DNA of 64,000 nucleotides from Nitrospirota bacterium (GCA_963721805.1 CAVRJY010000001.1:1152001-1216000), one strand, 5' to 3'. Shown: positions 26,195 to 53,352, counted from the first letter of the stretch. Notes: generated by a model not told the origin, from the sequence alone. A program made the numbers and translations.

Positions 26195-27844
26195 TCATCT
26201 CCGTCTAACCGCGCCGTTGCCATCGTTCGTGCGGCCCTCCGCGGCATAGACCTCCGCCAGCAGCCGTCTCGGCCTCGGGTCAGCGGGGTCCTGGGCGATC
26301 AGCCCCTGCGCGGTCGCCTCCAAGGCGCCCCAGAGCGCCCCCTTGTCGAGCCCCGCGAGCGCGGGCGCGGCATCCACTCTCACGAAGACGAGCGCGACGC
26401 CGTCCTGGTAACTGAGCTTCCATGAGGGGTCCTTAAGGAGCTTGAAGACCAGCCCCGGCACGTTTAGGGTATTGGGGTCGAAGGGATGGATCATGACAGT
26501 GGCGATCCCCCATCTTTTAAATACCTCGTCTTGGTCCCCCATGTATGCGCGTGAGTATTCGTTCAGCACGCCCGCATCGAGCGCGCGGCCGTCGATGAAG
26601 TCCTGCTGCGCGGGATAGAGCCCCCACGTGACGATGTCGCCCCACTCATACGGGTGAAAGATCCGGGGCGGAAGGCCGCGATTTTTGATATACGCGATCG
26701 CGCCCGCCGGGATGCTGGCCCTCGCCGGGCCGCCGACGGCCAGCGCGTTATAGGGATACAGAATTGTGCCGAGCACCGCCATCAGCGCGCCGAGCGCCGC
26801 AATCTGGAGGCCGGGCATGCGGCCCTTGAGCCCCCCGCAGCAGACCGCAAGCTGCCTTGCGCATATGACCGTGGCCACGAGAAAAAACAGGATGCAGAAC
26901 CTGAAATGGGCGTAGCCCTCATACCCGAAGCCAGCAAGCAGCATGGCGTGCGCCGGGTCGACCCTGCGCCACGTAAGGAGCACGGCCGCCGCGACGGCCG
27001 CCCCGAACCCGAGCACGACGTACGGGAGCGAGGGAGAGGCTTCATAAGCCGCGTACTGCCAAAGCGGCAGGTACTCGTTGATCGTCTGCACGGTCGAGCT
27101 GCGCATCTCGGCCGCGTTTACGGCGAGGGCCTCGAACCCGGCCGGGTTTATGCCGGCCGAGAGCATCATCACGGCGCAGAGCGCCAGGAAGCGCAGCAGC
27201 AGTCCGCTGGCCAGCGGCTCGCGCCTGAGGGCGGCCCTCCCAAGCTCGGCCAGCGCATATACGGCGATGACCGCGTGACCCAGCATATAGCCCCGGTGCA
27301 CGTTGGCCCAGATTACCATCAGCGCCGGCCCGGCCGCGAGCAGCCACCAGGACAGCATCTTTCCTGCGCGCAGCCTGGCCGTAACAGCATCCATGTACCC
27401 TACGATCGCGACGACGAGCGTGAAGGAGATGAGCTGCGGTCTGAGGTCGTCATAGAAGCGGAGCAGATAGACCGAGGGCAGGGTGATGATGAGCGCGGCC
27501 ACGGGGTCGAGACCCTCGTGCACTGCAAGCCGCCAGGCCGCGAATATCCCAAACGCAAGCAGCGCGGCCTTAAGCGCGACCAGCCCATAGAGCCCCGCAG
27601 CGGCGTATGCGGCGTAGATGATGACCTGCGCGAGCCAGAAACCCTTCAGCACGACGTCGGTCCTGATGTTTGGAGCAATTTGCGCTGAGGTATATGAAAA
27701 CGGGTCCTGCTGCGGCAGGGCGTGGTGCTCAGCAATCCATTTGCCGGTGCCCAAGTGCCACCATAAGTCCCCGGTCCCGAGCGGGGTCAGGAAGGCCAGC
27801 AATACGAACGCGAAGAATATAACCGGTATGACCAGTCGCCTCAT
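26195..27844 (-). CDS. Polytopic membrane protein with DLWWHL motif (possible GT-C-type glycosyltransferase/ligase)
   Basis: Many TM helices, GDLWWHL..G, RPQ, WANVHRG, FIDGR motifs; 3 nt downstream of the acyl-CoA ligase gene. Confidence 0.6.
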   Translation of the reverse strand: MRRLVIPVIFFAFVLLAFLTPLGTGDLWWHLGTGKWIAEHHALPQQDPFSYTSAQIAPNIRTDVVLKGFWLAQVIIYAAYAAAGLYGLVALKAALLAFGIFAAWRLAVHEGLDPVAALIITLPSVYLLRFYDDLRPQLISFTLVVAIVGYMDAVTARLRAGKMLSWWLLAAGPALMVIWANVHRGYMLGHAVIAVYALAELGRAALRREPLASGLLLRFLALCAVMMLSAGINPAGFEALAVNAAEMRSSTVQTINEYLPLWQYAAYEASPSLPYVVLGFGAAVAAAVLLTWRRVDPAHAMLLAGFGYEGYAHFRFCILFFLVATVICARQLAVCCGGLKGRMPGLQIAALGALMAVLGTILYPYNALAVGGPARASIPAGAIAYIKNRGLPPRIFHPYEWGDIVTWGLYPAQQDFIDGRALDAGVLNEYSRAYMGDQDEVFKRWGIATVMIHPFDPNTLNVPGLVFKLLKDPSWKLSYQDGVALVFVRVDAAPALAGLDKGALWGALEATAQGLIAQDPADPRPRRLLAEVYAAEGRTNDGNGAVRRR

Positions 27845-27847
27845 AGT

Positions 27848-29263
27848 CTACCTCCTCAACTTTCCGCTCGCGGTGCGGGGCAGGGCGGACACTATCTCGA
27901 TGGCCTTCGGGACCTCGTACGACGCGAGCATGCGATAGCAGTAACGGCGTATCCCGTCGGCAGCCGTATCCGGGTCGGCCCCTTCGCGCAGGACGACCCT
28001 CGCTGCCGGGAGCTGCCCGTAATGCGGATGGGGCTCGGCGTAAACGATTGATTCCAGCACGAGCGGGTGGCGGTTTAGGACATCCTCGACCTCCGCGGCG
28101 AAGACCTTCATCCCGGCGAAGTTGATCACGTCCTTGGTCCTCCCGACGATGAAGAGAAACCCGTCGCGGTCGATCCGCCCTATGTCGCCGGTGCGGAACC
28201 AGCCGTCCTTCAATATCTCACTCCGCGTCCTGAAGGGTGAGTAATAGGCGTCCAGCATGCCGGGGCCGCGCAGCCATATCTCCCCCGCTCCGGTCTCGTC
28301 CGGTGCCTCTATGCGCAGTTCGTAGTCCGGCAGCGTGCGGCCGACGGACCCGGGCGGGTTGCCCGGAAATCTGATAAACGGGAGCCCAACCTCTATGATG
28401 CCGTAGGCCTCGCTGAGTTCCATGCCGAACTTGACCCTGAACGCCCCGGCCAGCTCGTCCGGGAGCTTCATCGCGGTCGATACCGCGAGCCTCACTCCGC
28501 TGAGCGCATCGCGGGGGACGAACCCGGCGCTTGTGAGCATGCGGTAGTGAAACGGCGAGGCATAGATAAGCGTGCCGCGCCGCGACGTGACGGCCTCTAG
28601 CATCGAGTCCGGGAAGCGTCTAGTGGAGCATACCAGTATCGTCGCGCCCTTGCGCAGAAAAAGCAGTATCGTCACGACGAAGTGAAAGCTCATCGAGAGC
28701 ACCCAGACTATCCTGTCACTGGGTGTGATCATAAGACCCCGCTGGGCCGCGTCCGTGCGCTCGTGGATCGCTCGGTGAGAGAGCACCACGCCCTTGCTCG
28801 ACCCGGTGGTGCCGGAGCTGAAGCGTATGAACGCGGGGTCGAGGCCGCAAAACCCCTCGGGAGGGGCGGCTGCGGCGCGCCGCTCGATGATAAAACCTGC
28901 CAGACCGTCCGCATCAAGAGGCGCTGCGGCGGGGTATAGGGTGCTATTGGAGATCACGAACTCCACGCCGATCTTCTCGATGATCTCGTCCGTCTCGGCC
29001 TCGCTCTGCTCCGGCGCTATCGGGACGATCACGGCGGAGAGCGAGAGCACCGCGAGGCTGCATGCGATATACTCGACCCCGTCGTCGCACTTAAGCGCGA
29101 CGCGGTGGCATGGGAGCACGCCGTGGCCCGCGAGAGATAAGGCTATGCGCTCCGAAAGCGCGATGAGCTCTGAATACGTCACCTCGCGGCCCCCGTCGGC
29201 TACCGCGATATTCCCGGCATATGGCGCGGACTCTGCCTTTATCGTCTCGAATATGTTTTGCAT
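27848..29263 (-). CDS. AMP-binding acyl-CoA/acyl-ACP ligase
   Basis: FSSGTTGSSKG, EAYGIIE, GWFRTGDIG, PRTASGK. Confidence 0.9.
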   Translation of the reverse strand: MQNIFETIKAESAPYAGNIAVADGGREVTYSELIALSERIALSLAGHGVLPCHRVALKCDDGVEYIACSLAVLSLSAVIVPIAPEQSEAETDEIIEKIGVEFVISNSTLYPAAAPLDADGLAGFIIERRAAAAPPEGFCGLDPAFIRFSSGTTGSSKGVVLSHRAIHERTDAAQRGLMITPSDRIVWVLSMSFHFVVTILLFLRKGATILVCSTRRFPDSMLEAVTSRRGTLIYASPFHYRMLTSAGFVPRDALSGVRLAVSTAMKLPDELAGAFRVKFGMELSEAYGIIEVGLPFIRFPGNPPGSVGRTLPDYELRIEAPDETGAGEIWLRGPGMLDAYYSPFRTRSEILKDGWFRTGDIGRIDRDGFLFIVGRTKDVINFAGMKVFAAEVEDVLNRHPLVLESIVYAEPHPHYGQLPAARVVLREGADPDTAADGIRRYCYRMLASYEVPKAIEIVSALPRTASGKLRR

Positions 29264-29264
29264 G

Positions 29265-30389
29265 CTATCTGAGCCTGGCCGCCGCTATGCCTGCCTGCTC
29301 GCCGATGCTGAGGCATGCGCCCATGACGCGCGTCGAACCGAGGGCCTCATGCGTGGCCGAGATGCACCGCCCTGCCATGAACAGGTTTGTTATCCCCTTG
29401 GCCTTCATGCACCCAGGCGGTATCTCGTAATAATCGCCGGGCGGAGGATACCGAAGCACGGTCGGCCTACCGAGCCGCCAGAGCTCTATCGGCCACGCGT
29501 TTTTCACGGCGCCGTCGTCGAACTTTCGGGCTGAGAGTATGTCTTGTTCGGTCAGGACGTACTCGCCCTCGATCCTCCGGGTTTCCCGGACCCCAAGCAT
29601 TACTTTTTCTATCGCGCTTCGGCCGAACTCCGGCAGCCCCTCGCGTATCGCGGCGAACAGCAGCCCTGCGTCCCGCGCCGCGTCCTTTGCGGAAGCGTCA
29701 TTCTCTATGCTGAACTTGAGGTACCCAACAGATCCCGAGGCCGTGAACTGCGCGTATCTGAGCCGCTCCGGGAGCGTGCCGTGCACCGTGGCGCGGCTTA
29801 CGAGAAACGATACCCTTAGAGGCAGCATCTCGTCGGATACGGCGATGCCGTTTATCCGCACGATGCAGCCGGAGGGCTGACGCACGGCCGAGGGCAATAT
29901 CCCGGCCCCTGCCAGCGCGGCAAGCGAGCCGTCCCCTGTGCAGTCTATCGCGGCAAGGGCTGTTATCTCTCCGGCGTTAGTGACGACCTTCGTTATGCTT
30001 GCGCCCTCGCGCCCGGCCCTGACCGCCTCGGTATCGAACCGGATCTCTAGTCTCCCGGCCTCGGCCCGGCATAGTCCCGTAAGCACCTCGATGAGCTGTC
30101 CGGCCTCGTAAGGCAGGACGTATACAGAGCCAACCTTCAGCGGTCTCGAGGCAGGCGAGAGCCGCATCAGCGCTGCCGCGACCTCCCGGCTGATCCCGTC
30201 ATTGAGAGTCGCGCGGTCTGCTTCCTCGCCCGTGCCGTACAGGCCGCATATCTGATGGAGCATGCCCCCTATGCCGCCGAGCCTCGCGGTGCGCTCGACC
30301 AGGACGGTCGACGCACCGCTACGCGCCGAGGCAACCGCCGCCGCCACGCCCGCCACGCCGCCTCCGGCCACCAGCACGTCGCACCTCAT
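29265..30389 (-). CDS. FAD-dependent oxidoreductase (FAD_oxidored family)
   Basis: DVLVAGGGVAG, IDCTGDG, GVRETRRIEG, AGRCIS, RVMGAC..GEQAG. Confidence 0.88.
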   Translation of the reverse strand: MRCDVLVAGGGVAGVAAAVASARSGASTVLVERTARLGGIGGMLHQICGLYGTGEEADRATLNDGISREVAAALMRLSPASRPLKVGSVYVLPYEAGQLIEVLTGLCRAEAGRLEIRFDTEAVRAGREGASITKVVTNAGEITALAAIDCTGDGSLAALAGAGILPSAVRQPSGCIVRINGIAVSDEMLPLRVSFLVSRATVHGTLPERLRYAQFTASGSVGYLKFSIENDASAKDAARDAGLLFAAIREGLPEFGRSAIEKVMLGVRETRRIEGEYVLTEQDILSARKFDDGAVKNAWPIELWRLGRPTVLRYPPPGDYYEIPPGCMKAKGITNLFMAGRCISATHEALGSTRVMGACLSIGEQAGIAAARLR

Positions 30390-31684
30390 CGCGGCTGCCC
30401 CAGTCCCGCTAGGACCGTCGCCTCTATCCCGGCAGCCTCCTGCTCCGTGATCAGGCCCTCGAGCCACGAAAGCGTGAGGTGCAGCCTCTGGCCGAAGCGC
30501 GTGAAAAAAAGCCCGAGCCCCGGAGGGGAAGGGACGCGCGGCATATGGAAGCAGTCCTTAATCTCGTGCCCCATGAACCGCTCTCCGAGGTATGCGCTCC
30601 TGCCGATATACGAGAAGCAGAACGAGGCGAGCGTACCTTTGAAAGGCAGGTTCAGCGCGGCGCTCAGGGCCGGCAGCGGTGCTATGCGCATGAGGTGGCT
30701 CGCTTCGGCTATGTCGCGAAGCGTGCCGTCCTTAACGTGCTCGAACATCTGGGCCTTGAGCGAGCCTATAAGCCTCGCGCGGTCCGCGAGCTCATCGGGC
30801 CCTATCTTGAAAAACAGGTAAGTTACATAGTTAAAGAAGAGTTCTTTCCTTATGTCCTCGGCCGAGCGCGCATCGACAGTGACAGGCACCAGGTAGTTGG
30901 GCGAGGCGATCCCGCGCGACTTAAATACCCTGTCCACGGCCGGGACGACAGAGGCCAGCAGATACGGCATCTCAAAGAGGTATCCGGCCTCCTCCGAGGC
31001 CATTTTAAGGATGGCCGCGCTCTGTGCGGCATCAAACCCGAGCACTCGATACCTGAATCCGGGCCGGGCCGCGGCTGGCATCGGCAGGCACCGGGGCATA
31101 GGCCTTCCTAGCGCGATCAGCTTGCGGTTGATATTGCGGCCGGCCAAAAACTTCCGGCTCCAGCCGTCTAAGAGCGCGTCCTGAGTGAGGTTCACTCCTT
31201 GCGGCGCGGTGCCGCTTTGGTACAGATCGTTAATCAGCCAGAGGAAGGCCTCGGCCCCGCGCGCGTCAAACAGGCGGTGGTCGAAGGTGATCGCGAAGTG
31301 GCTGGTACCTTCTCGAGCCCGGATATAATGGTACGCCAGGTGGGTGTTTTCGTCCCTGAAGCCGCGGTTCGCGGCTGCCTCGAGGAGCGGCATCGGATCG
31401 CCGTCGTGCACGCTGAGGTCTGCCTTGCCGGATTTGCGCGGCATGCGCCAGTACGGGCAGAGGTTGAAATCGCGGCTGACGCGTCCGCTTAAGACCGGCA
31501 GCGCTTCGTGCATGCGGTCAAGCACGTCTCGCAGCGCGTGCTCGTCTATCTGGCCATTGAGCCTGAATACTATCTGCGAGGAGTTGCCGGAGCAGGTCGT
31601 GCGCTTCATCGCATAGTCCAGCATCGAGACGACCCAGTCGGGGCCCGTCAAGTAGCGCTTTCGCTTGGCTGACGGGACGCGCAT
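30386..31684 (-). CDS. CoA/ACP-dependent acyltransferase of the condensation-domain/CAT fold
   Basis: HxxxD motif in FDHRLFDARG; LPVLSGRV and PVTVDAR segments typical of the fold. Confidence 0.65.
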   Translation of the reverse strand: MRVPSAKRKRYLTGPDWVVSMLDYAMKRTTCSGNSSQIVFRLNGQIDEHALRDVLDRMHEALPVLSGRVSRDFNLCPYWRMPRKSGKADLSVHDGDPMPLLEAAANRGFRDENTHLAYHYIRAREGTSHFAITFDHRLFDARGAEAFLWLINDLYQSGTAPQGVNLTQDALLDGWSRKFLAGRNINRKLIALGRPMPRCLPMPAAARPGFRYRVLGFDAAQSAAILKMASEEAGYLFEMPYLLASVVPAVDRVFKSRGIASPNYLVPVTVDARSAEDIRKELFFNYVTYLFFKIGPDELADRARLIGSLKAQMFEHVKDGTLRDIAEASHLMRIAPLPALSAALNLPFKGTLASFCFSYIGRSAYLGERFMGHEIKDCFHMPRVPSPPGLGLFFTRFGQRLHLTLSWLEGLITEQEAAGIEATVLAGLGQPR

Positions 31685-31691
31685 CGCGCCT

Positions 31692-31943
31692 CTAAACGCG
31701 CTGCTTTGCGCTTATGAACGCGGCAAGCGAGCGGATCGAGGAGAAGTCCTCCTTGCTGAGGTTGTGCTCGATCAGGCGCAGGCCGAAGTCTTTCTCGATA
31801 GAGACGATCACCTCGACGAGCCCCAGAGAATCGATGCCGAGCGTGTGCAGCGGGGCCTCGGCCGGGATCGCGGCAGCCTCGAGCCCGGTGATCGACGAGA
31901 CCGTGCCGGTCAGCCGTTTTTCTATCTCAGCGATATCCGCCAC
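31692..31943 (-). CDS. Acyl carrier protein
   Basis: LGIDSLGLVE phosphopantetheine site. Confidence 0.9.
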   Translation of the reverse strand: MADIAEIEKRLTGTVSSITGLEAAAIPAEAPLHTLGIDSLGLVEVIVSIEKDFGLRLIEHNLSKEDFSSIRSLAAFISAKQRV

Positions 31944-31955: not shown

Positions 31956-32243
31956 TCAGCCCTTGCCGCTGGTGTTGTCGTAGATGAAGTTGGCAAGCGT
32001 GTCTATAGAGTAAAACAGCTCCTTGCCCTGCTCCATGTCCTTTACTTCCACGCCGAAATTGCGTTGCAGGAGCACGACGATCTCGACCGCGTCGAGGGAG
32101 TCGAGGCCGAGCCCGGCGCCGAAGAGCACCTCGTCGTCCTTTATCTCCTCGGGCTTGATGTCATCGAGCGAGAGTTCGTCGACGAGCATCGACTTGAGCT
32201 TCTTCCTTATCCCGGCCAGCGCCTCTTCCTTTGTATTGTCCAT
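31956..32243 (-). CDS. Acyl carrier protein
   Basis: LFGAGLGLDSLDAVE, the APE-cluster ACP style. Confidence 0.92.
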   Translation of the reverse strand: MDNTKEEALAGIRKKLKSMLVDELSLDDIKPEEIKDDEVLFGAGLGLDSLDAVEIVVLLQRNFGVEVKDMEQGKELFYSIDTLANFIYDNTSGKG

Positions 32244-32261: not shown

Positions 32262-33161
32262 TTATTCGTTATCTCCCCAGATGTCGTGAAATACGAACCA
32301 CTGGTAAGGGTATTGCTCCACGTACCGCTCGAGTATCGCGGCATACTGCCGCACGCAGCCTTTTATGTCGTCACGCCGGGTCTTTCGCGTGAACTGCCCG
32401 GTTGTGATCACGTTTGAGAAATCCACGACGTACTTGCGCTCGGAGACCTTTGCCGATAGCATCACGAAGACCGGGCAGCCTGCCGCCGCTGCTATCGCGA
32501 ACGCGCCGTAAGGCAGGCGGGCCGTATCGCCCAGAAACGTGACCTCCCCGGTCCTGTGCCCATACCCGCGGTCGCCCATGATCGAGACGAGGCCGCCGTT
32601 TTTGATCGCCTCCAGCGCCTCCAGCGCGCCCGAGAAGTCCTTGGGGTCCAGGATCCTCAGCCAGTCGCGCTCCTCGTAGAGCCTCAGGGCCTCGCTTACG
32701 GCCGCGTTTTCCTCAGGCCGCATCATCAGATAGACCGGCCTCCCCAAGCCTCCGAGCGCCGGCATCGTCATCTGCCAGTTGCCGATATGGGCAGTCAGGA
32801 GCACCGCACCGCGGTCCGATTCGCCTAAAACCCTAATCATTTTATCATATCCGGCCACCTCGGTGTCGAAGAGCGAGAGCCCGGAATCGGTTGAAACATA
32901 GCGGTCCACAAGGTTTTTTCCCTGGCTGACATAGAGCCGCAAGACTCCGAGGCAGCGCCTGATGAAACCGCTTGCGGGAAAGCGCCTGCGTATATACGCA
33001 TCGCTCGCGCGGAACGCCGCGCGGTCAAGCAGGAGATAGTAGGCGCAGACGGGATATAAAAATGCATACGCGGCCTTAAGTCCGGAGGTCTTGAGCACGG
33101 CGCGGAAAAACCAGAACCCCAGCCGGTTGCCGCGCTTCTTGGGGGGCATCTCCTGCGTCAT
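32262..33161 (-). CDS. LpxL/HtrB-like lipid acyltransferase
   Basis: LLTAHIGNWQ, IMGDR, YPYQWFVFHDIW. Confidence 0.85.
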   Translation of the reverse strand: MTQEMPPKKRGNRLGFWFFRAVLKTSGLKAAYAFLYPVCAYYLLLDRAAFRASDAYIRRRFPASGFIRRCLGVLRLYVSQGKNLVDRYVSTDSGLSLFDTEVAGYDKMIRVLGESDRGAVLLTAHIGNWQMTMPALGGLGRPVYLMMRPEENAAVSEALRLYEERDWLRILDPKDFSGALEALEAIKNGGLVSIMGDRGYGHRTGEVTFLGDTARLPYGAFAIAAAAGCPVFVMLSAKVSERKYVVDFSNVITTGQFTRKTRRDDIKGCVRQYAAILERYVEQYPYQWFVFHDIWGDNE

Positions 33162-34351
33162 GCTGGCTTCCGCTTTTCGAAGGCATGCGCTATGAAGAAA
33201 AACGCCGAGGCCATCAATATCGAGGCCACCGGGGCTATAACCAGCGAGCCGAGCAGCCACTCGTAGAGCCTCTGGTGAAACTGCGCAAATACGGTCTCAA
33301 ATGTAAGGTCCGTAAGCCAAGCCCCGTGGCGCATGTAATAGCCCAGCTCTATGCAGAGCGCCGGGGTGAACGGGGCCATGAAGACGTGCTGGACGTTCAG
33401 GGCCACGATCTTGTTAAGGTTCAGCCTGACCGAGACGTAGAGTATCGCTGCGGTGTGCAGGAACAGCAGCGGGATTATCGCCAGAAACGAGCCGACCGCG
33501 GCAGCGGCAGCGAGCCCCTCAGGGGTCGCGTTTTCCTTTATAAGGTGGCGTATGAGCTTAAGCGGGTTGAAGATCAGCCCTATGTCGAACTTTGGCGCTG
33601 GCGCTAGCCGCTTGTGCCCGAAAGGCAGGAGCCGCAGGCCTATCAGCATCGAGTGCACGCGCGTGAGCCTGAGGTTGTCCATGACCGGCCTGAAGCTCGA
33701 GACGCGCTGCCCGGCCGGGGGGTAGTATACCCCGATCCCGACCGAGCGGAGCCTGAGCCCGGCCCAGGCCGCCTTGGCTAGCACCTCGGCCTCGAAGTCA
33801 TAGCGGCGCCCCTTGAACTTAAGTAAGTTTAGCTGTCTTACAGGATATGCCCGAAAACCGCTCTGGCAGTCGTCTATATGCTGGCCGGTCTCGATCCTGA
33901 GCCAGAAGTTCGCGAACCTACGGCCGAACCGGCTCGAGCGCGGGATGTTCTCGACGCTGAAGTCACGCGAGCCGACCACGAGGCTCAGTTCGTCGTCTTG
34001 AAGCATCGGGATGAACTTCGCGATATCGCCGGGGTCGTGCTGTCCGTCGGCGTCAATCGTGATCATATACTTGCCGCCCTGAAGCTCGACGAAGCGCGAG
34101 GCGGTGAGTATCGCCTGGCCCTTGCCCATGTTGGCGTGGTGGCGGAGCACGACAGCGTCTAAGTTCGAGATGAGTGCGCCTGCGTCGGCGTCGGTCGAGC
34201 CGTCGTCTATGACGACGACGCGGCCGGGGAGCATCCGGCAGCAGCCCTCGACGACAGCCCTAAGCGTCGGGGCGTTGTTATAGACCGGCACCGCGGCCCA
34301 GACGAGATCGGTGCCGATTGTCTCAGTTGCTGCGCTTGCGCTTGCGTTCAT
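33158..34351 (-). CDS. Glycosyltransferase family 2 fused to DUF2062
   Basis: PVYNN, IDDGSTD, IDADGQH, DCQSGFRAYP; hydrophobic C-terminal domain. Confidence 0.88.
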   Translation of the reverse strand: MNASASAATETIGTDLVWAAVPVYNNAPTLRAVVEGCCRMLPGRVVVIDDGSTDADAGALISNLDAVVLRHHANMGKGQAILTASRFVELQGGKYMITIDADGQHDPGDIAKFIPMLQDDELSLVVGSRDFSVENIPRSSRFGRRFANFWLRIETGQHIDDCQSGFRAYPVRQLNLLKFKGRRYDFEAEVLAKAAWAGLRLRSVGIGVYYPPAGQRVSSFRPVMDNLRLTRVHSMLIGLRLLPFGHKRLAPAPKFDIGLIFNPLKLIRHLIKENATPEGLAAAAAVGSFLAIIPLLFLHTAAILYVSVRLNLNKIVALNVQHVFMAPFTPALCIELGYYMRHGAWLTDLTFETVFAQFHQRLYEWLLGSLVIAPVASILMASAFFFIAHAFEKRKPA

Positions 34352-44683: not shown

Positions 44684-44686
44684 ATA

Positions 44687-45983: not shown

Positions 45984-46741
45984 GAGCCGGCCTCCATCAG
46001 GTCGAGTTCGTGCTGGATCGTATCGCGTATGCGGTTTTTGAGCGTGAAGACCTGCATGCCCTTGTAGTCTTCCTGTTGGACGGCCGGAAGCCTTCTGACG
46101 CGGATCGTACCGGGCCGGAGCATTAGCGAGCCCTTGCGGGGTATGTCCTCGCTGCCAGAGATGCAGACAGGCACTATCGGCGCGCCGCACTGAAGCGCGA
46201 GCCGCGCGAACGCCCCGTTGAAGCTCCCCATCCGCCTGCTTGCCGAGCGCGTCCCCTCGGGGAAGAACGCTATCGATACGCCCTGTCCGAGCAGTTCGCG
46301 GCAGCGTGAGAAAAACTCGTCCGGGTCCATGCGCTTGATGTTTAGATACCCCGCGGCCTTCGCGAACTGCCCGATCACCGGGATCTTGAACGGCCATACG
46401 TTTACGATCTGCACGATCTCGTAAGGGAACACGCACAGCAGGTATGCGTCCGAGGCCGAACGGTGGTTGCAGACGAATATATACGGCGCGCCCGTATCTG
46501 ACGCGTCGCCATGGTCCTCGTACCTGAGCCTGATGAACGGATACGGCATCGAGGTCACGATCTTTCCATAGAGGCTGATCGCGCGGCGGAAGTACCGCAT
46601 CGCGGTGCGGTGGCTCACGAAGGGCGCGCGTACCGCCACCCCTAGCGTCAGCAGCGGGATCGCCATGGCCGAGGCGGCCAGTATCAGGGCGTAGCTGTAG
46701 ATGCTGAGCGCCAGATGCCCTATCCGCCCTGCTGATTGCAC
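45980..46741 (-). CDS. PlsC-like lysophospholipid acyltransferase
   Basis: NHRSASD (HxxxxD), FFPEGTRS. Confidence 0.9.
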   Translation of the reverse strand: MQSAGRIGHLALSIYSYALILAASAMAIPLLTLGVAVRAPFVSHRTAMRYFRRAISLYGKIVTSMPYPFIRLRYEDHGDASDTGAPYIFVCNHRSASDAYLLCVFPYEIVQIVNVWPFKIPVIGQFAKAAGYLNIKRMDPDEFFSRCRELLGQGVSIAFFPEGTRSASRRMGSFNGAFARLALQCGAPIVPVCISGSEDIPRKGSLMLRPGTIRVRRLPAVQQEDYKGMQVFTLKNRIRDTIQHELDLMEAGS

Positions 46742-46743
46742 GG

Positions 46744-47001
46744 CTATCCGGCCATCTTCTGAGCTATGAATTTGTAGATGTCCGCAAGGGTGCGTATCTC
46801 CCTCACGCTCGCCTCGTCTCGGATGCTCACGCCGAAGGCCTTCTGGAGCGCGACGACGAGGTCGACCACGTCGAGGCTGTCGAGGCCGAGCTCGGTGAAG
46901 ATGTTGGCCTCGGGCACCAGCCTCGCGGGCTCGATCTCGAATGAGTCCTCGAAGACCTTGTTAGTTTTTTCTATGATTTCACGTTCTGTCATCTCAGTCA
47001 C
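46744..47001 (-). CDS. Acyl carrier protein
   Basis: LGLDSLDVVDLV. Confidence 0.92.
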   Translation of the reverse strand: MTEMTEREIIEKTNKVFEDSFEIEPARLVPEANIFTELGLDSLDVVDLVVALQKAFGVSIRDEASVREIRTLADIYKFIAQKMAG

Positions 47002-48230
47002 CTTTCTTCATCCGGCTGGAGCTTCCTGCATACGAGTGCGGAGTTTATCCCGCCGAAGGCGAAACAGTTTTTCAGTATGGTATTTATCGTCGCGTCCCTC
47101 CGGGCGGTCACGTGGTCTATGCCCGCGCAGTCGTCAGCGACGTTCTTGAGGTTCAGCGTCGGGTAGATCACGCCGCGCCGCATCATCTCGAGCGTTGCGA
47201 TCAGCTCCAGCGCGCCCGAGGCCCCCAGCGTGTGGCCCATGTAGCCCTTGAGGCTGCTCACCGGCGTGCCGTCGCCTATGACCTCGCGGATAGCGGCCGC
47301 TTCCTCCGCGTCGCCCTGCAATGTTGCTGTGGCGTGCGCATTGACGTAGTCCACTTCCGGGGCGGTGATGCCTGCCTCGGCCATAGCGGTGCTCATGCAG
47401 TATGCCATCGAGCCCCGGTCTGACTGGCTCATGTGGCTGCCGCTCCCGCTCGTGGCATAGCCGGTGATCTCGGCGTATATATGCGCCCCGCGCGAGACGG
47501 CGCGCTCGTAGTCTTCGAGCACCAAAATCCCCGAGCCCTCGCCGCATACGAGGCCGTCGCGATCACGGTCGAAGGGGCGGGGGGTGGCCTCCGGGCTGTC
47601 GTTATACCCCGCGGATGTGGCGTATAGCACGTCGAACGAGCCGGTCACGGTCGGGTGGAGCTCCTCGGCCCCGCCGCAGAGCAGGACGTCCTGCCGCCCG
47701 ATGCGGATCATGTCATACCCGGTTCCTATCGCCTGAAGCGCTGAGGCGCAGGCCGCGGCGGTGTCCATGATAAGCCCGTTTAAGTTCAGGTACTGCGAGA
47801 CGTTTGCGGCTGCGGTATGGGCCACGCACTGAAAGAACATCGTGGAGTTTAGCTTTGAGATGTCGTGGGCCGGGAGCATCGTCTCGAACACGTCGCTTAT
47901 GCTCTTGGCGCTGCCCATCGTCGAGCCTACGATGCACCCGGCGCGGCGCTCGGGCAGCTCGGTTATGCCCGCATCAGCCAGCGCAAGCCCCGCGGCCTGT
48001 GCGGCGAATATGCTCATGCGGCCCATCGTGCGGCGCTTCTGCCTTGGGATGAGCTTTTCGTCCGTGACCTCAGCAGGCGCTCCGACGAGGCTTTTTAGCC
48101 CCTTGTATGCCTCCCATCCGGGCATCCTGCGCACGCGGCTCTCCCCTGAGGCGATACCGGACATCATCGCCTCGGTGCCCTTCCCAAAGGGCGAGACCGC
48201 GCCCATCCCCGTGATGACGACGCGCCTCAC
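46998..48230 (-). CDS. Beta-ketoacyl-ACP synthase (FabF/ApeR-like)
   Basis: RVVITGMG, AAACASA, HATAT, KGYMGHTLGASG, FAFGG. Confidence 0.93.
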   Translation of the reverse strand: MRRVVITGMGAVSPFGKGTEAMMSGIASGESRVRRMPGWEAYKGLKSLVGAPAEVTDEKLIPRQKRRTMGRMSIFAAQAAGLALADAGITELPERRAGCIVGSTMGSAKSISDVFETMLPAHDISKLNSTMFFQCVAHTAAANVSQYLNLNGLIMDTAAACASALQAIGTGYDMIRIGRQDVLLCGGAEELHPTVTGSFDVLYATSAGYNDSPEATPRPFDRDRDGLVCGEGSGILVLEDYERAVSRGAHIYAEITGYATSGSGSHMSQSDRGSMAYCMSTAMAEAGITAPEVDYVNAHATATLQGDAEEAAAIREVIGDGTPVSSLKGYMGHTLGASGALELIATLEMMRRGVIYPTLNLKNVADDCAGIDHVTARRDATINTILKNCFAFGGINSALVCRKLQPDEER

Positions 48231-49726
48231 CGGCCGAGCCCCCGTTCTATGAAGCCGTCGAGCGTTGCGCCGTCGAGCACCGAGCGCGCCACGATGAACG
48301 AGGACATCATCGCCCCGATTATGCCGGGCAATAGCGAACTCTGCCCGGCGGCGAGGAGGTTTCGCAGCGGGAGCTCCGAGCGCAGGTTGATCTGCCCGAG
48401 CTTCTGCTTGATGCCATAGGCCGAGCCGTCGGGGCTGTGCAGGTAGTCCCTGAAGGTAAGCACGCTCGCGGAATCGAGCACCTCGATCTTCGATGAATAT
48501 TGGGGGAGCATCGCGCATATGCGCTCTATCATGCGGCCGGTCTTGGCCGCCTTGAATTGCCGGTAGTCCTCCGGCCGCTTGCCGGTCGTCGTGTCTGCCC
48601 ATCGTGCGGCGGAGTCGACCGAGGCGGGCTCAAAGAGGCTCAGCACCTTGCGGGGCCTGCCGTGCACCAGCTCGATGGATTTCATCAGCAGTATCGCGGA
48701 GTCCGGTATGCCCTGATCGAGCATGCGGTTGATGTCCGCTTCGGGCATAATGGTCAGCAGCGAGCGGCCGAAGTCCGCCTCCTCGAACTCATCCGGCAAT
48801 ACCGAGAAGACCGAGAAGAAACCCGTAGAGGACTCAAACGAGCTGACGCGCTCCCTGAACGCCGGGGATACGCACCCCGGAGGCAGGAGGTCGATGATCC
48901 CCTTGGGGTGGATCGTGAATACGCAGTGGCCGGCCGCGATCTCCTCTCCGGTGCTGAGGATAAAACGCTTTACGCGCTTGCCCTCGATCTCGGCGAGTTC
49001 GCTGATACGGCAGCCGGTCTGGATCTCGATGTCCAGCCCCCTGGCGCGGGCCTTGAACGCCTTGATGAACGCCTCGCCGCCGTCTTTGACGCGCGCCATC
49101 GACTCGTACAGCCCGATGCTCATCCTCGCGTGGTTCGCGAACGAGACCTCGGAGGGCTTGGTGCCGTAGCACATCGCGAATACCGACAGCAGGGCATGGA
49201 GCGTGCGGTTTGGGCTCAGCGAGTCCAGTACGCTTTGGAGGCTCACGAAATCCTCCTCGATATGGGTGTGCTTGGCGCACAGCCTGCGGAGGTCCATCGA
49301 GGGCGTCCGGGAGCATACGTCGCGGAGCATCATGAAATATTTATCTATCGCGGCGGCCTCGGAGGGGAAATACCCCGAGAGCTTTCGCCTTATGCGGTCT
49401 ATTCCGGCGGGGATGTCATACCTGAGCCCTGTGTCTTCGAACAGGAGGGAGCTCGCGGAGTCTTCCTGAAGGAACTCAGGCTCGATCATCCCCTCGATGC
49501 CGAGCACGCGGAGGATGTCGTTGAGGATGCCGCCCGGCTCGAGCCCGCCGCTAAAGTGAAACCCCGTATCGAACGGGACGCCCTGCAGCCTGAAGCGGGA
49601 CATCGAGCCGCCGATTATAGGGGCTGCCTCGATAAGCAGGACCTTGCGGCCGTTGAGGCCGAGTATGAGCGCCATCGTCATGCCGCTGATGCCGCTGCCT
49701 ACGACAATGGAGTCGAACCTCCGCAT
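48227..49726 (-). CDS. Phytoene desaturase (CrtI)/retinol-saturase-like FAD oxidoreductase
   Basis: VVGSGISG, FDTGFHFSG, GSAYG, AGQS..PG..GA. Confidence 0.85.
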   Translation of the reverse strand: MRRFDSIVVGSGISGMTMALILGLNGRKVLLIEAAPIIGGSMSRFRLQGVPFDTGFHFSGGLEPGGILNDILRVLGIEGMIEPEFLQEDSASSLLFEDTGLRYDIPAGIDRIRRKLSGYFPSEAAAIDKYFMMLRDVCSRTPSMDLRRLCAKHTHIEEDFVSLQSVLDSLSPNRTLHALLSVFAMCYGTKPSEVSFANHARMSIGLYESMARVKDGGEAFIKAFKARARGLDIEIQTGCRISELAEIEGKRVKRFILSTGEEIAAGHCVFTIHPKGIIDLLPPGCVSPAFRERVSSFESSTGFFSVFSVLPDEFEEADFGRSLLTIMPEADINRMLDQGIPDSAILLMKSIELVHGRPRKVLSLFEPASVDSAARWADTTTGKRPEDYRQFKAAKTGRMIERICAMLPQYSSKIEVLDSASVLTFRDYLHSPDGSAYGIKQKLGQINLRSELPLRNLLAAGQSSLLPGIIGAMMSSFIVARSVLDGATLDGFIERGLGR

Positions 49727-49731
49727 GCGCC

Positions 49732-50454
49732 CTACATCGCCAGACCGCCGTTTACGGCGATCACCTGTCCATGGATGTACATCTCGGGCTCGGTGCAGAG
49801 GAAGTTCACGACCGAGGCGACCTCGCCGACCGAGCCCACGCGGTTAAGCGGGATCAGCGGTATCACCTGCTCCTTGGGTATGTGCGCGGTCATGTCCGTA
49901 TCGATGAAGCCGGGGGCCACGACGTTTACGAGTATGCCGCGCTTGCCGACCTCGCGGGCGAGCGCCTTCGCGGCCCCGATCAGCCCGGCCTTCGAGGCGG
50001 AGTAGTTCACCTGCCCGGCCTGCCCGATCTGGCCCGAGGCCGATGAGATCACGACTATGCGGCCCTTCCTGCGCCTGAGCATCTCAAAGACCACGGGCTT
50101 GACGACATTGAAAAACCCGTCGAGGTTCGTCGAGAGCACCGCGTCCCATTCGTCTTTTTTCATCATCGCCATGAGGTTGTCGCGCGCGATGCCGGAGTTG
50201 TAGACGAGCACCGCGGGTGTTGCGGATTCGAGCCTGCCTGCAAGCGCGGCCGCGGTCTCGTCATAGGACGCGACGTCAAACGCAATGAGCTCACAGCTGC
50301 GGCCCATGGCCTCGATCTCGGATTTCACCTCGGAGGCGGCCACGGAATTTTGTTTGTACGTGAGCCATATATCGAACCCGGAGCCCGCAAGCCGCAGCGC
50401 TATTGCCCGTCCGATGCCGCGGCTTCCGCCCACGACCAGTGCGATTTCGGCCAT
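49732..50454 (-). CDS. fabG: 3-oxoacyl-ACP reductase
   Basis: GGSRGIG, GIARD, YSASK, VAPGFIDTDM. Confidence 0.93.
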   Translation of the reverse strand: MAEIALVVGGSRGIGRAIALRLAGSGFDIWLTYKQNSVAASEVKSEIEAMGRSCELIAFDVASYDETAAALAGRLESATPAVLVYNSGIARDNLMAMMKKDEWDAVLSTNLDGFFNVVKPVVFEMLRRRKGRIVVISSASGQIGQAGQVNYSASKAGLIGAAKALAREVGKRGILVNVVAPGFIDTDMTAHIPKEQVIPLIPLNRVGSVGEVASVVNFLCTEPEMYIHGQVIAVNGGLAM

Positions 50455-50480
50455 GTCTCTCCCCTGTGGTACGCTTAGAT

Positions 50481-50533: not shown

Positions 50534-50549
50534 CCGAATCCGGGGCTTA

Positions 50550-51578
50550 TCAGGGTTTTTTCAACGATATCCAGCCCCTTGAGCCCGCGCAGTCGAGCCT
50601 CAGGCAGCGGATGGATTTAAGGGGGACGGCGGGGGAGGGCTCATATAGTTTGATCCCCGAGGGGTTTTCAGTGACGGGGTTCGGGAACCCGGCCCCGCGC
50701 CGCAGCATCAGGGCCGAGGCCGTGAGGTGAAACGCGCTTGAGCTCATAGAGCTGCCGAATACCGGCGAGTATGAGGCCACGGGCATGCCGTCAGGTATAG
50801 CGGCCAGGTACCCGGACTCGTCCGGGAGCATGCCGTCCGTGTCGATAACGAGCAGGCTTTCTGTCGCCGCGTTTTCATCGAACCCGACCGCAGCGATCCG
50901 GGCGATAGCATCGCCTGAGCTTTGAGGGCCGAGAAGGAAAAAGGCCGCGCCTTCGCCGGGCACGCAGCCCGTCCGGTTAAACCCGAAGGGCGAGATCCGC
51001 TCAGATGGGTGGAGCATCCGGCCAGCGACATGCCCGAGCACCTCGCCGTACTGCTCGACGCCGCCCACTAAGACATGCTTGCACCTGCCCTCGCCAATCC
51101 AGAGCCCGGCAAGCACGAGCGCGTGGTGCAGCGAGAATGCGAACTCGGTGATCGTCACAGTCGGCCCCTGTATGCCGAGCACGGATGAGATGTATGACGC
51201 GGCGGCGTTGTGCACGGAGTTGGAAAACGTGGTCGGCGATACGCCCGCATCCCCGTAGTCGAGGATGTCGTCCAGAAACTCGAAGGTCGTGACGTGCGCG
51301 CCTAGCGCTGTAGAGACTATCACGCCGGTATCGGCTGGGTCGATTGCGCCGAAGCTCGCGGCCTCGGACGCGGCGAGCACGGCCATCTTGCTTAGCTTGT
51401 CCGCGCGGCGGATTTTTTTTAGGGAAGGGTCCGTGACCCCGTCGAGCGATACGCGGCAGGCGTACCGCCCCTTCTCATCGGGTGCGGCGAAGCTCCGGGA
51501 GTTAATGAGCGCGTCTTCGAAGCTCTCAATTCCGCGCCCGCCCGCGAATATCGTCCCTATACCTAGTATGTCGATCAT
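50550..51578 (-). CDS. Ketosynthase chain-length-factor-like protein
   Basis: IRRADKLSKMA, VSPTTFSNSVHNAAAS, PGEGA; lacks the catalytic Cys. Confidence 0.82.
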   Translation of the reverse strand: MIDILGIGTIFAGGRGIESFEDALINSRSFAAPDEKGRYACRVSLDGVTDPSLKKIRRADKLSKMAVLAASEAASFGAIDPADTGVIVSTALGAHVTTFEFLDDILDYGDAGVSPTTFSNSVHNAAASYISSVLGIQGPTVTITEFAFSLHHALVLAGLWIGEGRCKHVLVGGVEQYGEVLGHVAGRMLHPSERISPFGFNRTGCVPGEGAAFFLLGPQSSGDAIARIAAVGFDENAATESLLVIDTDGMLPDESGYLAAIPDGMPVASYSPVFGSSMSSSAFHLTASALMLRRGAGFPNPVTENPSGIKLYEPSPAVPLKSIRCLRLDCAGSRGWISLKKP

Positions 51579-52747
51579 GAATAGAGCCCTATTACGAGCG
51601 CGGAGTTGTTGCCCCCGAACGCGAGCGAAGTGGATATCGCATGCCTGCCCTCGACGGCGGTCCTTTGCGTAAGCGGCGTGATCGGGATGCCCTCGTCCCG
51701 GTTTTGAAACCCGGCAGAGGCCGGGAGCCATCCCTCACGGAGCCCCATCGCCGTGAACGCAGCCTCGAGCCCTCCTGCAGCGCCGAGCGTGTGGCCTGTG
51801 TAGCCCTTGGTCGAGAGCACCTTTGCATCGTTGCCGAAAATATTGGCGAGCACCGCGCCCTCGACCTTGTCGTTCTCCATCGTGCCGGTGCCATGGGCAT
51901 TGACGAACGCGATCTCAGCGGGCGATATCGCGGCCTCCTGCATCGCGCGGTATATCGCCTTCGTGAGCCCCCGGCCCCCGGGGTGGGGAGAGGTCAGGTG
52001 GTATGCGTCGGCCGCTGTGCCGTAGCCGAGCAAGCGGAGGTCAGCCCTCGCGCCTCGCCTTCGGGCCGAGCCTTCGCTCTCGAGCACGAGCACGCCCGCG
52101 CCCTCGCCGAGGTTGAGGCCGCGCCTGTCGCGGTCGAAAGGCGAGCAGAGGCCGGGGTTGACTATCCCGAGGCTGGAAAACCCGCAGTACGGTATCCGGT
52201 TGAGTTCGTCCGTGCCCCCGGCTATCGCGATCTCACACAGCCCGGCCCTGATCCATGAGAGCGCGACGCCTATCGCATCGGTGCCGGATGAGCACGCGTT
52301 TGCGACGGTCATACGAGGCCCGCGAAGGCCAAGCATTTTTGCCAGCGCGGCGGCCGGGTTGCCCTTCAGGAACCGCTCTACCGCGTCCATCGGGGCGTCG
52401 CCCGCCCGGCGGTATTCGCTGTAAAACGCGAGGTCATTGAGCTCGCAGGCTACCGTGGTGCCGATAGCGATGCCCGCGCCCGCCATATCGCCCTGCTCGA
52501 GCCCGGCGTTCTCAAGCGCCTGCCTGACAGCATGCAGAGCGAGCCCCAAAGACCGCTGACCAGTCAGATGGTATTTATCCGGTAAATTTCGCACCTCGAA
52601 GACCGGGTGCCGAAGCGGGGTTTTAAACAGGGTGGGGGGCGCTGCGTTTCTCCTCGATGCCTCGAATGAGGCGAGGGTCTCCCGGTACCCGGCCCCCAGA
52701 GCCGAGATCATGCCCATGCCGCTTATGACGACCCCGCGCTCCCGCAC
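51575..52747 (-). CDS. Beta-ketoacyl-ACP synthase (ApeO-like KS)
   Basis: ANACSSG, DAYHLTSP, HGTGT, KGYTGHTLGAAG, AFGG. Confidence 0.93.
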   Translation of the reverse strand: MRERGVVISGMGMISALGAGYRETLASFEASRRNAAPPTLFKTPLRHPVFEVRNLPDKYHLTGQRSLGLALHAVRQALENAGLEQGDMAGAGIAIGTTVACELNDLAFYSEYRRAGDAPMDAVERFLKGNPAAALAKMLGLRGPRMTVANACSSGTDAIGVALSWIRAGLCEIAIAGGTDELNRIPYCGFSSLGIVNPGLCSPFDRDRRGLNLGEGAGVLVLESEGSARRRGARADLRLLGYGTAADAYHLTSPHPGGRGLTKAIYRAMQEAAISPAEIAFVNAHGTGTMENDKVEGAVLANIFGNDAKVLSTKGYTGHTLGAAGGLEAAFTAMGLREGWLPASAGFQNRDEGIPITPLTQRTAVEGRHAISTSLAFGGNNSALVIGLYS

Positions 52748-52752
52748 GTATC

Positions 52753-53352
52753 TTAAAGCAGCAACAGGCCCAGCCGCAGGCGTATGCTGTTGAGCGGGCC
52801 GTTGGGGCGCGAGGTGCCAGCGTTCGAGATATGGTGGTAGCGGCAGTTGAGGTCGACAGCTACGTGCCTGCCCCAGAGTTCCATATCGGTCGGCCACTTG
52901 ACGCCCGCGCCGAACTGGTACGAGCCGTCCCACTCGCGGCTGAGTTCGGGGACGTGGAGGTTCGTGTAGACCGGCCCGCCTCCGCCGAAAACGTAGGGGA
53001 CGAAACCCTTGGGAGAGGTGAAGTTCCATATGGCGAAGAAGTGAAGCCCGACGATGACCGCGCTCTCGGGGCTGTATACGTAGCTGACCGGAAGCTCGAC
53101 CGCGAATTCGTGGCGGCCGCGATACCAGGAGTCCCCGCCGATCTCGCCGGTCAGGAAATACCCGTAACGTCCCACCAGGTCTATGGCCTCAACGCGCGAG
53201 CGCGTCGCGCCCATGCCGGGGATCGTCTCGCCATATCCGGTGAACAGGCCCCATTCGTCCTTTGCGGTGAGGAAGGCGTCCCGCGTGTCAGCGAGCGCGG
53301 GGGCCGCTGTGCATATAAGCAGCAACAGTGCAAAAAGTACGCGCCTGTGCAC
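52753..53352 (-). CDS. Outer-membrane acyloxyacyl hydrolase / PagL-like beta-barrel
   Basis: Signal peptide (APALA), amphipathic beta strands, YHHISNAG..PN...N catalytic motif. Confidence 0.82.
   Translation of the reverse strand: MHRRVLFALLLLICTAAPALADTRDAFLTAKDEWGLFTGYGETIPGMGATRSRVEAIDLVGRYGYFLTGEIGGDSWYRGRHEFAVELPVSYVYSPESAVIVGLHFFAIWNFTSPKGFVPYVFGGGGPVYTNLHVPELSREWDGSYQFGAGVKWPTDMELWGRHVAVDLNCRYHHISNAGTSRPNGPLNSIRLRLGLLLL

Follow-up and report, generated by a model that had tools for sequence, protein, structure and literature searches.

Three kinds of described gene clusters are close to the one analyzed here. In X. doucetiae, which makes an aryl-polyene lipid (APEL), ApeD loads a conjugated acyl chain onto lyso-phosphatidylglycerol, and ApeJ adds N-acetylgalactosamine and then the aryl polyene (10.1101/2020.12.19.423268). 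In flexirubin biosynthesis, FlxY is a proven 4-coumarate:CoA ligase, working with the tyrosine ammonia-lyase (TAL) FlxA (accessible part of PMC3992019). The third kind is a type of island that has been on the list of ladderane candidates since 2009, when Rattray described it from Desulfotalea, Geobacter and Pelobacter; the available portion of that paper states that no ladderanes were detected in D. psychrophila (PMC2649909). Candidate genes from Kuenenia gave no product in E. coli, and their CrtI-like proteins are not phytoene desaturases (PMC4790861, as far as its accessible text goes). Current work favors the six-gene set kuste3603-3608, stating in the parts available that linking evidence does not yet exist (PMC10139942; 10.64898/2026.05.19.726425; PMC13459092). 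Non-anammox phyla express similar clusters to which no function has been assigned, and such clusters are often labelled "ladderane" in many anaerobes (accessible part of PMC9902471). Here, we describe such a cluster of 27 genes (positions 26195-53352) in a stretch of 64,000 nucleotides from a Nitrospirota bacterium (GCA_963721805.1 CAVRJY010000001.1:1152001-1216000), which is called the window in the following.

The cluster is real, intact-looking and common. It is likely a flexirubin/APEL-like glycolipid pathway of likely anaerobes, and neither a demonstrated nor a probable ladderane pathway. Judged from its genes, it appears to work like an aryl-polyene lipid system that stands outside the strict ape family (by its starter genes) and outside the flx family (it has no FlxA). 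The best explanation as a whole, which we hold with slightly more belief than doubt, is that the cluster makes an aryl-polyene (flexirubin-type) outer-membrane lipid, not a ladderane, and that a radical S-adenosylmethionine (SAM) enzyme with a SPASM domain replaces the starter lyase. An earlier note on this DNA had proposed an aryl-polyene-like core, a kinship with the island of anammox bacteria and deltaproteobacteria, and an exported glycolipid. These points stand, the kinship being based on TIGR04072 and on the accessible part of PMC2649909. The ladderane emphasis of that note, however, is not supported: the host genome is dsrA-positive and has no HZS_alpha domain, and among proteins of solved structure, the one closest to the TIGR04072 enzyme is a methylase and not a cyclase.

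Gene families were assigned by Pfam and NCBIfam profile scans. Compared genomes and loci carry G and L labels, with G000 being the host. All 27 genes are on the minus strand, from 53352 to 26195. The operon starts 2 bp after ileS-lspA with a PagL-family gene and ends with a membrane protein. Genes overlap at 16 of the 26 junctions, and the widest gap (95 bp) lies ahead of fabG. A promoter scan was not informative (5 sites versus 2.6 +/- 1.5 in shuffled sequences, one of them within this gap). The profiles bear out most of the inventory that had been read from the sequence: 27 co-oriented genes, with three ketosynthases (KS), two chain-length-factor-like (CLF) proteins, three acyl carrier proteins (ACP), three radical SAM enzymes, FabG, a FabA/ApeI-type dehydratase, a 4HBT thioesterase, PaaK-like and AMP-binding ligases, PlsC-type and LpxL-type acyltransferases, a GT2-DUF2062 protein, CrtI-like and PF12831 flavoproteins, LolA and an HpnN/MMPL-like transporter. 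Each KS has the catalytic Cys and the two His motifs, and both CLF proteins are devoid of them. Other parts of the inventory need amendment. The condensation-type acyltransferase has the HxxxD motif and fitting ESM Atlas neighbors but no Pfam match. The PaaK-like ligase belongs to its family but is one gene in two pieces. Of the two supposed B12-dependent radical SAM enzymes, B12a passes the TIGR04072 model that had been suggested for checking it, but B12b is under the Pfam B12-binding cut-off (28.7 versus 32.1). The SPASM enzyme is present, but its fused ApeP-like dehydratase half, its likely role in starter supply, and two further B12 enzymes outside the window had been overlooked. Finally, a PagL-family gene opens the operon, and the last gene is probably foreign to the cluster.

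The likeness to aryl-polyene systems extends over most of the pathway. The 17 proteins of a canonical ape cluster served as reference (ape names were assigned from gene order and PMC8253772), and eleven of them have matches with E < 1e-5: ApeD, E, F, I, J (both halves), K, M, O, P, Q and R. The LolA-like and DUF3261-like genes were recognized by Pfam only. Identities are 38% and 33% for ApeE and ApeF, 33% and 24% for ApeI and ApeP (the fused half matches 6qsr_B), 44% for ApeQ and 23% for ApeM. ApeO-type and ApeR-type KS are both represented (Table 1). In the ape part of the KS/CLF phylogeny that the earlier note had called for (25 sequences), KS2 groups with ApeR (support 98/94), but the position of KS3 relative to ApeO is not settled. 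The steps of ApeD and ApeJ in X. doucetiae appear to be encoded here as well. FlxY is the best NCBIfam model of the PaaK-like ligase, with a score that refers to a shortened piece. No DarA/DarB-type genes were found among the cluster ORFs (open reading frames), to which this search was confined, so that the locus is not expected to make a dialkylresorcinol ester; a type III polyketide synthase (PKS) is encoded at another locus.

The dehydratase is split. In the ApeI-like half, His is invariant in 10 of 10 sequences, and the position of Glu is occupied by Gln in nine of them. The catalytic roles of His and Glu are known from FabZ. Because His is present but the catalytic Glu is usually Gln, the ApeI-like half can be predicted to need an ApeP-like partner. 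A comparison of ApeI and FabZ types in the PDB revealed no specific affinity among FabZ structures.

The starter genes set this cluster apart. The host genome (94% complete) has no PF00221 ammonia-lyase, so that FlxA has no counterpart, yet it retains the FlxY-like ligase. A 4-hydroxybenzoate starter via ApeH and UbiC is not indicated either, with no significant ApeH match in the cluster and no UbiC chorismate lyase (PF04345) in the genome. Sister clusters do have a PF00221 lyase. In G518, it (564 bits) is flanked by the FlxY-like ligase and a free ApeP gene, which is the slot of the SPASM-ApeP fusion in the window. The distribution of the two enzymes was surveyed in 80 of the 82 B12b-positive genomes (kin are not independent). 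The SPASM enzyme alone was found in 40, the lyase alone in 19, both in 1 and neither in 20. Among the 42 genomes with a FlxY-like ligase, the corresponding numbers are 33, 8, 0 and 1. For the host phylum they are 31, 5, 0 and 1. In the sole genome with both (G591), the SPASM match is the weakest (44%) and is located on another contig; G612 was counted as lyase-positive even though it holds only a high-scoring, probably catabolic copy. Five further genomes checked for both enzymes gave four with SPASM only and one with the lyase only. In 12 of the 20 lyase genomes, the lyase gene is at most 16 kb away from B12b; in six, the distance is no more than about 300 bp. On the B12b tree (39 rows), the SPASM/lyase label needs four changes, at least two of which are forced by well-supported branches; this tree omits the 20 genomes with neither enzyme and most of the largest family, and G591 is labelled as lyase. 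Since the two enzymes are complementary across cluster genomes, the SPASM enzyme likely supplies the same kind of arylacrylate starter as the lyase, by radical deamination or desaturation. DesII is a precedent for radical deamination. The lyase of the sister clusters probably uses tyrosine: the best structure match of the G518 lyase is tyrosine aminomutase, and the G067 lyase has a His-Leu motif which we take to be a TAL motif. A more far-reaching proposal, which we put forward tentatively and would not yet bet on, is that this SPASM family is a non-homologous stand-in for the tyrosine/phenylalanine ammonia-lyase with a 4-methylideneimidazole-5-one (MIO) group, and thus a radical route to coumarate-type starters in a widespread clade of aryl-polyene-lipid pathways of anaerobes, where up to five radical SAM enzymes would modify a lipid of the fatty-acid type.

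A different role of the SPASM enzyme would leave the exported glycolipid unchanged. The enzyme might instead work at the dehydratase step, with the ACP-bound chain as its substrate for desaturation, decarboxylation or C-C coupling. The starter would then not be an arylacrylate, and the mutual exclusion with the lyase would reflect two lineages with different products. This would fit the fusion to the ApeP half, which was found in 120 of 120 homologues among the matches listed, and the dependence of the Gln-bearing ApeI half on its fused partner. It would also fit the ligase tree (17 rows), where a single change (89/89) explains the SPASM/lyase label. The fusion may, however, be a positional accident, because stand-alone SPASM orthologues (frames of 344-381 amino acids (aa)) exist in seven genomes (G055, G600, G417, G482, G512, G572 and G326) and because the G518 lyase directly precedes a free ApeP gene. 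The independent switches on the B12b tree also speak against this alternative, which we consider rather unlikely but worth keeping in mind. An additional idea, that the SPASM enzyme replaces the extra ApeR-like KS of variant clusters, was ruled out because G600 and G232 have both.

Several observations weigh against an aryl-polyene lipid with a SPASM-derived starter. The single change on the ligase tree is one. In the sample from the phylum of a Desulfobacteraceae record, the exclusion is weak (9 SPASM only, 14 lyase only, 1 both, 19 neither; p 0.06), and one quarter of all B12b genomes surveyed (20 of 80) have neither enzyme. The four lyases tested are under every curated cut-off, so that the substrate may be Tyr, Phe or His. 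The SPASM domain resembles no known deaminase, its best models being AhbD/NirJ2 (137/500 bits). In the 17-protein comparison, nothing in the cluster significantly matched ApeC, G, H, L, N or the putative ApeA; there are two noncatalytic KS-fold partners, but neither significantly matches the CLF ApeC. Besides lacking a settled tree position next to ApeO, KS3 has as its top PDB match 9s5h, an entry of no established source. The valine or isoleucine in the active site of B12a and the frameshifted ligase, both treated below, are further such points. Neither the SPASM-ApeP fusion nor the SPASM/lyase exchange is described in the titles and abstracts found by a literature search, which left most subscription journals outside. 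The exchange of SPASM for lyase is a new, testable point.

B12a is found in the context of fatty acid synthase/PKS genes that belongs to TIGR04072. The tryptophan C2-methyltransferase TsrM (6WTE) is its best sequence match (E 1e-36, 24-29% identity) and also the top match in a plasmid search. BzaD is its next NCBIfam model, and it scores 144/500 bits on TIGR04428. A structure model (pLDDT 89) has a TM score of 0.84 to TsrM, 0.71 to OxsB and 0.68 to TokK and CysS. In TsrM, Arg69, at the lower axial position of cobalamin, favors methyl transfer from methylcobalamin, and Glu273, a ligand of the unique iron, keeps SAM off this metal cluster (accessible part of PMC8992657). Arg68 of B12a aligns with Arg69 and is conserved in all 30 sequences compared (20 of 120 homologues among the matches listed, and 10 from the loci). 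The position of Glu273 is Val or Ile in all 30. Because TsrM is the best match by both sequence and fold and the Arg69 equivalent is kept, B12a most likely methylates an electron-rich carbon; its active site is a hybrid and would leave room for radical chemistry. The cluster has no ApeB, the usual ring methylase of ape clusters.

The role of B12b is the least clear among the B12 enzymes. It is among the best conserved cluster proteins (74-97% in 120 homologues among the matches listed). It has an extra invariant Cys beside CX3CX2C and is devoid of GxES, a motif usual in radical SAM enzymes. AprD4 is its best fold match (TM 0.76). B12b adjoins lyase or ligase genes, not B12a, in G338, G417, G460 and one G608 locus. 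This, together with its distance of only about 300 bp from the lyase in six other genomes, weakens the idea of a B12a:B12b complex.

Radical SAM enzymes in such number could also be taken to close small rings in the polyene (ladderane-like cyclobutanes, cyclopropanes or a cyclopentane), and the cluster would then be a tractable model for ladderane chemistry. There are up to five of them per pathway, some relatives adding a HemN-like one. TIGR04072 is passed, the CrtI-like, PaaK-like and membrane-protein genes are syntenic with Kuenenia as given in the accessible part of PMC2649909, and KS1 scores on the model of the cispentacin enzyme AmcF. In the PDB, KS3 and CLF2 rank chains B and C of 9s5h first and second, and this entry may be the heterodimer of anammox bacteria. 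The AmcF match is, however, non-specific and under the cut-off: KS3 (238/325 bits) exceeds KS1 (204/325), CLF1 has no AmcG match, CLF2 reaches only 30/80, and plasmid searches gave only Streptomyces-type KS at 32-37%. KS1 was thus rejected as a cispentacin-type cyclizing KS (as described in the available part of PMC10698177). B12a is nearer to TsrM than to the ring-contracting OxsB. The aromatic lyases of sister clusters point to an aryl product. The set called exclusive to ladderane producers in the accessible text of PMC10139942 is the six-gene kuste3603-3608, which has no export or glycosyl genes. Ladderane production by this cluster is unlikely, because the host is not an anammox bacterium (dsrA is over its cut-off) and because the syntenic Desulfotalea cluster gave no ladderanes. 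The cyclization of the polyene is therefore an alternative to which we give little credence.

A HemN-like (class C) radical SAM gene was seen inserted between ACP2 and the deacetylase gene in L021:10543-11928, L020:2339-3751 and G196. Jaw5 and other cyclopropanases belong to class C (accessible part of PMC13459092).

The cluster might also be decaying or silent in this host. The frameshift near 44925 affects its only FlxY-like ligase, and four of four intact relatives match one frame up to this place and another one past it (intact relatives have 434-463 aa). The genes for B12c, B12d and the deacetylase (see below) are scattered to other loci, and B12b was found in none of five genomes from the host's family. 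Whether error or real, the frameshift leaves the ligase interrupted in this assembly. Contigs of three DNA runs were compared with the region 38000-47500; among the pieces listed, none spans 44925, the nearest stopping at 44903. The other 26 frames are open and of full length, and the G+C content at third codon positions (GC3) is like that of housekeeping genes. The remote genes are intact (49-65% identity). In the same window, an unrelated EF-G2 paralogue (57587-59675, minus strand; another EF-G match is at C1:271815) is broken by a one-base frameshift near 59406, which suggests indel errors in the assembly; because of this similar shift, an assembly indel is also plausible for the ligase. 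A decayed or silent cluster is thus improbable. Recent horizontal acquisition was considered as well and is supported neither by GC nor by GC3, despite the patchy distribution.

The window contains one more copy of a widespread cluster, which is common, not rare. All ten regions fetched from relatives carry it, and seven of them conserve a 19-gene core in the same order (mostly about 35-78% identity), so that the cluster is not a chance assembly. TIGR04072 is passed in 11 of 61 related genomes. B12b orthologues (E<=1e-100) were found in 38 of 301 sampled genomes of the host phylum and in 44 of 301 from the phylum of the Desulfobacteraceae record. Besides dsrA, the host genome has cobS, futalosine-pathway genes and one AcpS. 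The labels of homologues suggest that the host belongs to Nitrospirota.

The pathway seems to extend beyond the window, with two more linked B12 radical SAM enzymes and a deacetylase encoded at other loci. The clusters of relatives add a polysaccharide deacetylase, B12c (HpnR-like, 239 bits) and B12d (HpnJ-like, 181 bits), both B12 scores being under the cut-off; in some of them, a HemN-like radical SAM and a methyltransferase are also present. In the host, the deacetylase and B12d (49% and 60%) are side by side at C1:935574-937837 (L066:7572-9934), downstream of a chemotaxis operon, and B12c (65% identity) is alone at C2:470227-471675 (L067:7225-8676). B12b is also present in 30 of 31 genomes with B12c and in 31 of 35 with a B12d match (23 of 24 at >=60% identity); kin are not independent in these counts, and the 60% line is our own cut. 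A set of five genes (those for ACP1, the second ligase, the condensation acyltransferase, the FAD enzyme and B12c) behaves like an accessory module, because all five are missing together in G232 and, apart from B12c, also in G600 and G518.

On this basis, a pathway can be sketched. Starting with an aromatic amino acid or else an arylpropionate, the SPASM enzyme would make an arylacrylate by radical deamination or desaturation, and the FlxY-like ligase would activate this product. The ApeR-like KS2, which likely extends the starter, and then KS3:CLF2 would elongate on ACP2/ACP3 with FabG and the ApeI:ApeP-type dehydratase (His from the ApeI-like protein, Glu from the SPASM-fused domain), resulting in a conjugated polyene. 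A second chain may be built or modified by KS1:CLF1 together with the CrtI-like flavoprotein. The TsrM-like B12a would methylate an electron-rich sp2 carbon, probably of the phenol ring, standing in for the missing ApeB, and B12b probably works at the starter end, as it adjoins lyase or ligase in other genomes. As in APEL, PlsC would acylate lyso-phosphatidylglycerol, GT2 would attach an N-acetylhexosamine, and the LpxL-like enzyme would acylate the sugar. The accessory module (ligase, ACP1, FAD enzyme, remote B12c, condensation acyltransferase, remote deacetylase) may attach a further acyl group. Export is attributed to MMPL, LolA and the lipoprotein.

Table 1. Genes of the cluster in operon order, with positions in the window (x/y, score/curated cut-off in bits; percentages, identity to the Ape protein named).
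Feature	Position	Strand	Evidence
PagL-family outer-membrane beta-barrel (acyl hydrolase-like)	52753..53352	-	PF09411 45.8 bits
KS3, catalytic, ApeO/polyene-KS-like	51575..52747	-	PRK09185 287 bits; ApeO 40% over 262 aa; PDB matches 9s5h_B 223, 6kxd 209, 6qsp 193 bits
CLF2, noncatalytic KS partner	50550..51578	-	KS N-terminal domain only
Ketoreductase, FabG/ApeQ/FlxB-like	49732..50454	-	FabG 287/273, FlxB 282/340 bits; ApeQ 44%
CrtI/phytoene-dehydrogenase-like flavoprotein	48227..49726	-	PF01593, PF13450; CrtD/CrtI models far under cut-off
KS2, ApeR-like ketosynthase	46998..48230	-	ApeR 44% over 409 aa; PRK09116 428/470
ACP3, ApeF-like	46744..46992	-	PF00550; ApeF 33%
PlsC/ApeD-like acyltransferase	45980..46741	-	PF01553; ApeD 28%
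PaaK/FlxY-like aryl-acid ligase, two pieces	44687..45983	-	FlxY model 388 bits on N-terminal piece alone, cut-off 520
Radical SAM/SPASM enzyme with ApeP-like dehydratase half (fusion)	43208..44683	-	PF04055, PF13186, PF22817
LolA-like periplasmic carrier	42576..43208	-	PF03548; flexirubin LolA2 model 93/125 bits
MMPL/RND exporter, ApeM-like	40205..42583	-	HpnN model E 5e-22; ApeM 23% over 680 aa
Lipoprotein, weakly DUF3261 (ApeN)-like	39534..40208	-	PF11659 E 0.0017, under cut-off; lipobox in sequence
ApeI-like dehydratase half, catalytic His (GHFP)	39154..39537	-	ApeI 33%
Thioesterase, ApeK-like	38675..39157	-	PF13279; ApeK 29%
KS1, third catalytic ketosynthase, own clade	37554..38678	-	FabF 213/494, AmcF 204/325 bits; clade 100/100
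CLF1, short noncatalytic KS partner	36943..37557	-	PF00109 fragment
B12b, B12-type radical SAM, unnamed family	35678..36946	-	CX3CX2C and invariant extra Cys
B12a, B12 radical SAM, TIGR04072 member, TsrM-like	34323..35678	-	TIGR04072 607/360 bits, full length
GT2-DUF2062 glycosyltransferase, ApeJ N-half-like	33158..34351	-	PF00535, PF09835; ApeJ 11-230 29%
LpxL-type acyltransferase, ApeJ C-half-like	32262..33161	-	PF03279; ApeJ 261-550 25%
ACP2, ApeE-like	31956..32243	-	PF00550; ApeE 38%
ACP1, accessory module	31692..31943	-	PF00550; always adjoins condensation gene in the ten regions fetched
Condensation/PapA5-type HxxxD acyltransferase, accessory module	30386..31684	-	HxxxD motif; ESM Atlas neighbors PF00668/PapA_C at 0.98; no Pfam match
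FAD oxidoreductase PF12831, accessory module	29265..30389	-	220 bits
Acyl-AMP/CoA ligase, accessory module	27848..29263	-	PF00501, PF13193
Polytopic membrane protein of no named family	26195..27844	-	no Pfam/NCBIfam match

Some of these genes deserve a comment. PagL-family homologues are within the clusters of some relatives (G035, L001, G032, G286, G067, G106, G600 and G417). The pairing of CLF1 with KS1 is suggested by a natural KS1-CLF1 fusion in L006. CLF2 follows KS3 in relatives, and in G267, whose assembly is rich in frameshifts, both form a single frame, which suggests that these two also pair. The membrane protein encoded last has paralogues at C1:1321297, C1:1509798 and C1:393521, and no counterpart was seen in the 20 related regions compared. 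Despite its coupling to the operon, it therefore probably stands outside the pathway. Its ESM Atlas neighbors are unnamed, some having TPR tails.

Other loci were noticed during the analysis. About 25 kb before the window, there is a second small lipid/polyketide locus (L040:9356-15827; G000:C1 ~1121355-1127826) which codes for a methyltransferase, a U32-peptidase-like protein, an ACP, a FabF-like KS, a B12 radical SAM and a type III PKS. Its radical SAM is TIGR04072-like (298 bits, under the cut-off) and also carries the TsrM-type Arg. The product may be a methylated alkylresorcinol or pyrone. Another TIGR04072 cluster type with a shared gene order (L030:68-6804, L031:12467-19864 and L035, from G021, G045 and G034) has two KS, three B12 radical SAM enzymes, a stand-alone DUF2062 protein, an acyltransferase, FabG, an ACP and MMPL; neither a PaaK nor a SPASM gene was seen in the stretches printed. 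In the sample from the Desulfobacteraceae phylum, five clusters that have no FlxY-like ligase contain Dak2-DegV (fatty-acid kinase-like) fusions (L073:16458-18137, L076:2330-4126, L081:14339-16060, L087:1953-3314 and L090:14387-16135). Near the end of the window, on the plus strand, an AAA/TniB-like ATPase gene (61799-63178) has a GC content of about 50% versus a background of 60%. Upstream of it (60793-61398, plus strand), a protein is encoded with a long Lys/Ala/Pro-rich histone-like N-terminal repeat, presumably followed by a DksA/TraR-like zinc finger, as judged from its C-terminal Cys motif.

The exchange of lyase and SPASM enzyme points to an aromatic starter. If it holds, it would imply a new radical SAM reaction and a pigment-lipid class of anaerobes, and the related Kuenenia genes would become less likely ladderane candidates. 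Should the SPASM enzyme truly stand in for the lyase, the "ladderane-like" islands would gain a product class that sets them apart from true ladderane genes.

Among the known systems, anammox Cluster I (kuste3603-3608: amxACP, amxFabZ, an amxFabF heterodimer, PDH and a B12 radical SAM) follows the same KS/CLF heterodimer logic as our cluster, and both have a PDH-like flavoprotein as well as a B12 radical SAM. Unlike Cluster I, the window has a non-anammox host, adds glycosyl, acyl-transfer and export genes, and codes for a two-part ApeI/ApeP-type dehydratase. The gene descriptions in the accessible part of PMC2649909 for Kuenenia kuste3335-3352 and the D. psychrophila island agree in several FabF/CLF paralogues, ACPs, FabZ-like, FabG, phytoene-dehydrogenase-like, "phenylacetyl-CoA ligase", glycosyltransferase, Mmp-like membrane protein, radical SAMs and a polysaccharide deacetylase (remote here). 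Compared with these, the window is devoid of the SAM methyltransferase and the VacJ gene; additional here are five linked radical SAM enzymes, the ACP/ligase/condensation module and the SPASM-ApeP fusion. With the flexirubin cluster of Chitinophaga pinensis (flxA-Y and darAB, as given in the available part of PMC3992019), it shares FlxY-like, FlxB-like and LolA2 proteins as best or near-best models, all under the cut-off. It also shares multiple KS, a deacetylase, an acyltransferase, a glycosyltransferase and an exporter, and the FlxA-family lyase occurs in sister clusters. It differs by the SPASM radical SAM enzyme in a genome without ammonia-lyase and by the lack of DarA/DarB-type genes in the cluster. 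The APEL clusters (apeA-R of E. coli CFT073 and X. doucetiae) are represented by homologues of ApeD, E, F, I, J (split in two), K, M, O, P, Q and R at 23-44% and by LolA-like and DUF3261-like genes. In contrast to them, the methyltransferase ApeB, ApeG and a significant match to ApeH or ApeC are missing from the cluster, and UbiC from the genome; what the cluster has in addition is KS1:CLF1, two flavoproteins, the radical SAM enzymes and a second ligase module.

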